A program made the translations under genes and the position numbers. 64,000 nt of DNA, taken from an uncultured Parachlamydiaceae bacterium. GTDB lineage: Bacteria > Chlamydiota > Chlamydiia > Chlamydiales > Parachlamydiaceae. Location of the stretch: contig CAVVXH010000005.1 of the NCBI GenBank assembly GCA_963752155.1, positions 133,560 through 197,559 on the forward strand, read 5' to 3'. The notes under the pieces were generated by a model. The model saw nothing but the letters and a program-made list of their open reading frames with translations. It searched no databases and was not told the origin of the DNA. Position 1 is the stretch's first letter, and each line of letters starts with the position of its first letter. Below, piece by piece: positions 54,436 through 54,756 of the stretch.

Positions 54436-54657
54436 TTTAAAGACGTAATGATTAGAGAGCCGTATATCTTGGATCTCCTTGTAGAGAATAAAGTGATCAT
54501 ATAGGTAAAGGCCACAGAAAAAGAGCAAGACATACATAAGGCTCAGTTGTTGACATATTTACGCTTGAGCGACATCAAATTGGGTCTTTTGATTAATTTT
54601 GGAAAGAGTTCTGTCAAGGAAGGTATCTGTCGCGTTGTAAACGGCCTATACGTGTGA
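54436..54657 (+). pseudogene. GxxExxY-family (PD-(D/E)XK-like) gene remnant, 5'-truncated, in-frame stop at 54502
   Basis: Manual translation FKDVMIREPYILDLLVENKVII*VKATEKEQDIHKAQLLTYLRLSDIKLGLLINFGKSSVKEGICRVVNGLYV*. Confidence 0.85.
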
Positions 54658-54670
54658 TTTAACTGAACAT

Positions 54671-54756
54671 TTTCTTTGCGCCTTTGCGCAATATGCCGAA
54701 TGCGGCATATTGCGCCGTTGCGTTTAATTTTTCTTAGCATTCCGCATCAGTCGATT
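54671..54756. repeat. Family A single right arm with inserted 30-bp hairpin
   Basis: ctttgcgcctttgcg..gcgtttaatttttcttagcattccgcatcagtcgatt; hairpin gcgcaatatgccg-aatg-cggcatattgcgc at 54686-54715. Confidence 0.85.

Follow-up and report, generated by a model that had tools for sequence, protein, structure and literature searches.

A GxxExxY gene remnant in a Parachlamydiaceae-like genome as the fossil of a likely repeat-plus-nuclease cassette

The remnant and its mosaic surroundings

The window analysed in this study is a stretch of 64,000 nucleotides (C5:133560-197559) from a Parachlamydiaceae-like genome, G000, the assembly of which is 80% complete. At 54439-54756 of the window lies a dead, recombined fragment of an arm-gene-arm cassette, built around the 3' half of a GxxExxY gene; the locus is only a fossil, and its parts are the following.

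54293..54330, plus strand: end of an unrelated dispersed repeat, module U, adjoining the remnant locus (108 motif matches in the genome)
54331..54415, plus strand: module Q, the left end of a decayed DDE insertion sequence, in place of the 5' half of the cassette (8 motif matches)
54439..54657, plus strand: 3' half of a GxxExxY (PF13366/TIGR04256) gene, pseudogene; 172/179 nt identical to G000:C4:110811-110989
54502..54504, plus strand: TAG replacing the GAG codon of the ExK glutamate (E76, IEVK); GAG in the C4 copy
54658..54689, plus strand: the gene's own 3' spacer followed by the inner right arm of sister family A2, with two CTTTGCG units; matched by the C8 deletion derivative and by congener G001
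54686..54715, no strand assigned: module H, a hairpin of 30 nt with a GCGC junction; a further copy lies at C10:340666 and a partial one at C12:38299
54716..54756, plus strand: outer arm piece O, 41 nt, ending before the 14-nt T end; common to family A and B-repeat composites

The reading frame of the remnant, which is outside the ORF list, runs ...VMIREPYILDLLVENKVII, a stop codon, VKATEKEQDIHKAQLLTYLRLSDIKLGLLINFGKSSVKEGICRVVNGLYV and a second stop. A first-pass annotation had taken this frame for the C-terminal half of a GxxExxY protein, and the profile search confirmed it: the translation matched PF13366 positions 43-117 with an E value of 6.8e-20 (72.9 bits, cut-off 22), and the part 3' of the TAG passed by itself, with 45.6 bits for TIGR04256 (cut-off 35) and 43.3 bits for PF13366 (cut-off 22). 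The closest named relatives of the gene are from Parachlamydiaceae and other environmental Chlamydiota. Homology to the near-complete copy on contig C4 begins at 54439, with 96% identity, and the TAG at 54502-54504 aligns with a GAG of that copy, at the ExK glutamate as had been proposed. This glutamate is invariant in 38/38 aligned relatives. An altered genetic code at the TAG was considered and is unneeded, since GAG stands in the sister copy. The remnant and the C4 gene differ in one synonymous and five non-synonymous codons, two of these at the junction; between the C4 gene and the gene of the congener G001 (L018) the counts are 27 synonymous and 13 non-synonymous codons.

Relatives have the gene open over its full length, with both the GxxExxY motif and D...ExK; the remnant copy does not. 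As its 5' half has been replaced by other repeats and a nonsense codon stands at E76, the remnant is a pseudogene and cannot be autonomous. It is thereby ruled out as the autonomous partner of the gene-less family-A palindromes, the part which had first been assigned to it, and its native arms are of family A2, not A.

The remnant ends with TGA at 54655-54657, and 16 nt further on, at 54674, comes the first CTTTGCG unit. The first-pass annotation had placed one family-A right arm about 14 bp after the stop; an arm unit is indeed found close to this position, but only 54716-54756 matches family A. The part 3' of the remnant is a mosaic of A2 inner arm, hairpin H and outer piece O. The A2 arms of the C8 derivative and of the G001 gene end in TTTCTTTGCGTTAAAAAAA, and a contig from an unrelated sequencing run contains 54521-54689 with three differences, after which the A2 arm continues. 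Piece O has 84 BLAST matches genome-wide, many of them on B-repeat composites without an A core, and its last bases form the last codons and the stop of a convergent 486-aa ORF (54747-56207, minus strand). Another copy of module Q, at C5:20448, extends into the start of a transposase (PF14706, E 1.2e-7). No syntenic counterpart of the remnant flanks was found in the congeners G001 or G002.

A second GxxExxY remnant, of clade 2, lies at 57092-57230 of the window, with 95% identity over 61 nt to C10:276731. It has an AACGAT-type right array and adjoins the family-A copy at 57252. The window also contains collagen-like Gly-X-Y repeat genes, at 58024-60045 and about 29750-30030.

Genes, deletion products and family A in the genome

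There are 14 PF13366 matches in G000, of which 13 are GxxExxY loci and one lies within a 522-codon frame. Two gene clades with different arm units coexist in the genome. Clade 1 has three genes: C4:110655, where a left arm directly precedes the ATG and the 3' end has been replaced; C6:157328, flanked by one shortened and one full family-A palindrome, with its natural start out of frame and an in-frame ATG; and the C5 remnant. A pristine clade-1 gene was not found in this assembly (80% complete). Deletion products of the C4/C5 gene with both arms are present at C4:39330-39464, C8:109807-109945 and C15:153108-153180; in the third of these a centre of 15 nt fuses the gene start to the gene end. 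In clade 2 the intact gene C10:276731 lies between inverted AACGAT arrays, and one deletion junction is common to six derivatives. The deletion series in this genome extends from arm-gene-arm down to the 15-nt centre.

The gene-less palindromes of the C4/C5 gene and of clade 2 are plainly internal deletions of filled cassettes. The series, together with the inverted flanks at intact genes in relatives described below, supports arm-GxxExxY-arm as the ancestral unit, as the first-pass annotation had suggested. Its further claim, that the gene-less copies are derivatives of this unit, holds for A2 and clade 2, where internal deletions have kept the arms. For family A, BLAST of the centre against all GxxExxY coding sequences of the genome gave no match, and descent by gene deletion is therefore unsupported.

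Family A has 71 loci in G000 and a conserved centre of 60-70 nt. The following sites in the window illustrate its forms; the last entry is a site of the T...C unit described further below.

45663..45885, no strand assigned: complete gene-less family-A palindrome, T-O-A-A-O-T, with arms of about 97 nt that are 95% complementary
2467..2670, no strand assigned: family-A copy with mixed outer arms, P on the left and O-T on the right
11143..11299, no strand assigned: family-A copy fused to a RAYT-type B palindrome; both repeats are absent from the syntenic site in G002, which is rearranged there
57252..57416, no strand assigned: family-A copy with a T-B-C unit joined into the right arm
57417..57771: T...C unit site (further sites at L284, L287, L262 and L271)

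At 2657-2678 the T end closes in AGGAG five bases before an ATG, and the repeat may supply a ribosome-binding site. Family A has burst only in the G000 lineage: its core pattern has 109 matches in G000, none in either congener and a single one in 72 family genomes, and a diverged homologue is present in G002. It is likely that family A is a gene-less member of the nuclease system, its nearest gene being C6:157328 and not the C5 remnant.

The arms of 45663-45885 pair almost perfectly (-104.5 kcal/mol, DNA parameters). This pairing favours a role at the RNA level, in which the long stem would make the insert harmless or be cut out of transcripts, with the gene as cargo of the stem. ORF-bearing intervening sequences of 23S rRNA are a parallel, cassettes are often located directly behind a stop codon, and a four-helix-bundle gene is found in the same layout. 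We nevertheless regard an RNA role as very unlikely. The remnant lies between protein genes and not in an rRNA gene, and there was no Rfam match at 54200-54900; 70/71 family-A loci are outside any ORF of >150 codons; and such a role offers neither a means of spread nor a reason for the conserved nuclease residues.

Target-site duplications were absent from 8/8 complete family-A elements, with the ends placed at T or the P motif, and no base-exact empty site was found at three further window sites compared with congeners (63-82% identical over the matched stretches). The O+T pattern had no match in metagenome contigs, where no close strain was found, and a search of sequencing runs gave, among the matches listed, only small-share DNA runs and no RNA run. 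In G020, two copies of one cassette (L144, L145) have locus-specific flanks that are mirror images over 12-17 nt. The inverted target duplication suggested by these flanks was not seen in the 8 complete family-A elements.

Arms, genes and protein in relatives

An inverted repeat from flank to flank (score of at least 30) was present at 30/45 gene loci. After removal of six duplicates, a locus at a contig edge and a false match, inverted flanks were found at 27/37 loci, compared to 4/597 control ORFs of G000 (600 sampled from 1250) and 1/87 neighbouring ORFs. An enrichment of GxxExxY genes for flanking inverted arms was thus clearly observed; the check proposed with the first annotation had named family-A arms. 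A second, metagenomic set, into which 62 of 76 loci were entered with truncated ones left out and near-copies kept, had inverted flanks in 40/61 loci.

The cassettes are 0.45-0.5 kb in size and the GxxExxY protein has 125 residues. Arms are inverted, polar arrays of 8-9-nt units, one on each side of the gene, with the unit varieties CRCAAAG, CRCAGAG, AACGAT, CAGGAT and GCAGA. On the protein tree the arm unit changes 15 times, compared to 22.1 when shuffled (0/200 shuffles as low); for the CGCAAAG group alone the clustering was not significant (61/500).

PF13366 was found in 26/40 relatives. The arm doublet had at least three matches in 26/26 of these and at most one in 12/14 relatives without PF13366. 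Two genomes, G016 (69 arm matches, 79% complete) and G024 (36 matches, 92% complete), have arms without a PF13366 match. The Fisher p value for the co-occurrence of gene and arm, 1.6e-8, overstates the association, as the genomes are kin and not independent. Repeat abundance had been expected to track the gene: gene and arm motif do co-occur across relatives, but among gene-positive genomes arm and gene counts are uncorrelated (rho 0.32, p 0.12). Abundant arms in genomes lacking the gene had been named as a finding that would speak against the partnership; this applies to G016 and G024 among the 28 arm-rich relatives and not to the other 26. AACGAT arrays were found in 11/40 relatives, 7 with a clade-2 gene or remnant and 4 without a matching-clade gene among the matches listed. 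The 29 array-free genomes had no match of >61% identity among the matches listed.

Filled and empty units are found side by side or in tandem arrays at L033, L018, L028 and L053. Such neighbours, and the conserved family-A centre unrelated to the gene, are consistent with homing, in which the protein would cut empty palindromes and repair from a filled copy would insert the gene in the centre, the gene-less palindromes being the targets. PD-(D/E)XK proteins include intron homing endonucleases (PMC3424549), and the protein is a small predicted hydrolase without an evident strand-transfer part. Homing has, however, only a small probability in our view, as several of the gene-less copies have clearly arisen by deletion from filled cassettes and the origin of about 70 gene-less loci in one lineage is left unexplained by homing alone. 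At L053 (G035:C5:34768-37600), full and deleted cassettes follow one another head to tail, with a common spacer.

The structure model of the intact congener protein (L018; pLDDT 94.5) has an alpha-alpha-beta-beta-beta-alpha-beta core. The best Foldseek match was Cas4 SSO0001 (E 3.6e-4), followed by Pcal_0546, AdnA, alkaline exonuclease, Hjc and lambda exonuclease. VIA-align gave 4ic1 (SSO0001) a Z of 8.0 (rmsd 3.3, 100 aligned) and BpuSI and 3ijm, tied, a Z of 8.3, and a sequence search against solved structures returned 4ic1 as the sole match (E 0.65). According to this model the predicted fold is PD-(D/E)XK, in agreement with what had first been stated for GxxExxY proteins and with the conserved residue set; as VIA-align ties BpuSI, 3ijm and SSO0001, the fold scores favour no PD-(D/E)XK subfamily, Cas4 included. 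Among the 38 aligned relatives E26, D66, E76 and K78 are invariant (38/38), Q90 and Y94 nearly so, and no cysteines for an Fe-S cluster are invariant. In relatives the PD-(D/E)XK residue set is intact and under purifying selection. In a subclade of five members without arms (L088, L090-L093) the tyrosine of QxxxY is changed to histidine in 4/5, and this GxxExxY subclade is possibly domesticated. Its genes are packed against downstream genes.

Spread of the cassettes and comparison with known systems

Other movers are present in these genomes. The highest copy number, 67 cassette matches, was found in G035, where the cassettes are mostly carried inside a DDE insertion sequence. These copies were considered as proof of own mobility and rejected as such, the 11 full and 8 deleted copies examined being mostly inside the DDE element. 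At L155, L156, L157, L160, L161 and L044-L052, cassettes are located between the transposase stop and the right end in two different DDE insertion sequences. At L155 the stop of the transposase and the ATG of the gene overlap, and translation of the left arm adds an N-terminal extension. In G000, A2 copies are enclosed by an insertion-sequence end.

G000 has two intact-looking RAYT genes (NF047646/PF01797), C10:596682-597707 (L080) and C11:40743-41348 (L081), which are flanked by their own repeats B and R and not by A arms. The RAYT of L080 has a DnaA-like C-terminal part. Among the 28 arm-rich relatives, 21 have any NF047646 match, 15 a strong one and 7 none, and three of these seven contain 157-341 arm matches. 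RAYT predicts arms less well than GxxExxY across relatives.

Modules B, T or C are carried by 35/71 family-A loci (B nearby in 22/71), and none is near 36/71. The T-C unit, roughly 100 nt with unequal ends, joins A or A2 arms immediately ahead of a CTTTG unit. Complete copies are present in G019, G002 and G017, the T end is found at arms in G048 and G004, the joining of T to arms is alike in other genera, and in G000 the unit carries the RAYT-type B palindrome. When T flanks with an uninterrupted twin were inspected, 17/22 continued with CT, compared to a background of 5.9%, many of these flanks being variants of one arm. The CT joining also recalls IS110; a transposase of the IS110 type was not detected in the assembly, which is 80% complete. 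We considered whether T might terminate an intact insertion sequence and rejected this, since no well-matched inverted T pair encloses a long ORF.

A gene of the four-helix-bundle family (TIGR02436), broken by a TAA, lies at G000:C1:43174-43800 (L082) between inverted CAAGGAC-type 9-mer arrays. Gene-less arrays of this type are found in the window at 29094-29240, 37288-37416 and 39014-39243. This family is not known to include nucleases.

It is conceivable, although we consider it rather unlikely, that the cassettes and their deletion products are passengers of DDE elements, the T-C mini-element and RAYT, and that the nuclease serves some other purpose or plays no part in mobility. The cassettes inside DDE elements in G035 and the L155-type contigs, the insertion-sequence end that adjoins the remnant and encloses A2 copies, and the two RAYT genes of G000 all speak for passive carriage, as does the joining of the T end at CT, TnpA-REP being known to cleave at C|T (PMC8266576). 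Against it stand the seven arm-rich relatives without a RAYT match, the B and R repeats that frame the RAYT genes in place of A arms, and the A loci with no B, T or C module near. Nor are clade-matched arms, and the loss of arms together with a change of motif, explained by passive carriage.

To the explanation that the nuclease acts on the arms and helps cassettes and gene-less copies to spread, with 54439-54756 as a dead fragment of such a cassette, we give about an even chance. It draws on the observed layout, the deletion derivatives with both arms, the clade-matched units, the lineage bursts and the conserved residues; arm recognition, cutting and copying are its inferred part. The protein would recognise its own arm units folded as a hairpin or cruciform and would nick there, and host repair or template switching could then place copies of the unit bounded by the arms, filled or gene-less, at new sites or on other arms. 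Further contributions to the spread would come from DDE insertion sequences, the CT-joining mini-element and RAYT, which may also have made the mosaic at the remnant. Points against the nuclease as the mover are that target duplications and base-exact empty sites were not found, that cassettes are carried in DDE elements, that RAYT repeats occur in family-A arms, that the family-A centre is not gene-derived and that the same arm layout surrounds the four-helix-bundle gene. The uncorrelated arm and gene counts, the arms of G016 and G024, the four AACGAT genomes and the lack of a pristine clade-1 gene in G000 count against it as well. In its favour, one Cas4 nicks a cruciform plasmid; SSO0001 and Pcal_0546 do not cut circular dsDNA (10.1101/2024.11.29.625776).

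The remnant belongs to a real and widespread repeat-plus-nuclease cassette, likely a selfish system. A bolder proposal, which we put forward only tentatively, is that GxxExxY cassettes form a distinct class of prokaryotic mobile elements, in which a Cas4-like nuclease of 125 residues would recognise clade-specific 8-9-nt arrays and drive the multiplication of the cassette together with hundreds of palindromes that lack the gene; the arms would in turn offer a second parasite, of roughly 100 nt, a fixed site of insertion. If true, an orphan nuclease family found widely would gain a function, and many REP-like repeats an origin other than RAYT. The arm-gene-arm layout also offers a candidate substrate for the GxxExxY family and could account for the scattered occurrence of the family. 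In PMC3424549 the function of PDDEXK_3 is given as 'Unknown', and many horizontal transfers are noted. A literature search, covering mostly open-access text with supplements (e.g. the TIR tables of PMC3733652) outside its scope, found no description of an arm-GxxExxY-arm cassette, and GxxExxY was not mentioned in the available portions of PMC3733652 or PMC5704561.

Several known systems share features with the cassettes. MITEs are internal-deletion derivatives of autonomous TIR insertion sequences (background in PMC3733652). The cassettes resemble them in that internal deletions keep both ends, some copies having one common junction, and differ from TIR insertion sequences in having no DDE transposase and no target duplication in the family-A elements. 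With Cas4/RecB-like and other PD-(D/E)XK proteins (SSO0001, 4ic1; Pcal_0546, 4r5q; Hjc) the GxxExxY protein shares the predicted fold and the E...D...ExK...QxxxY set, but it differs from Cas4 in its small size, the lack of invariant Fe-S cysteines and the absence of a CRISPR context.

TIRtrons (TIRYT) likewise consist of a gene flanked by long terminal inverted repeats, and these repeats also make up families of moderate abundance (PMC3733652); TIRYTs keep the HUH motif and the catalytic tyrosine, unlike GxxExxY, and the same paper assigns no dedicated enzyme to the CGTC repeats. The closest parallels to REP/REPIN-RAYT (TnpA-REP; PMC3116915, PMC8266576) are a small enzyme gene framed by inverted repeats and many gene-less, intergenic hairpin copies with lineage-specific expansion, and dispersed inverted hairpin doublets matching the flanks of the enzyme gene were found here as well. 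The arm-enclosed gene is, however, TIGR04256, a predicted PD-(D/E)XK enzyme, whereas RAYT is of the HUH (Y1) type. Further, the arms are polar arrays of short units, and the gene is present at several loci, where it decays into a deletion series. Cleavage and strand transfer by the cassette, which is known here from sequence, are hypothetical, in contrast to REPIN-RAYT. The GxxExxY cassettes offer, next to RAYT, a candidate for another class of enzyme as the source of dispersed palindromic repeats.
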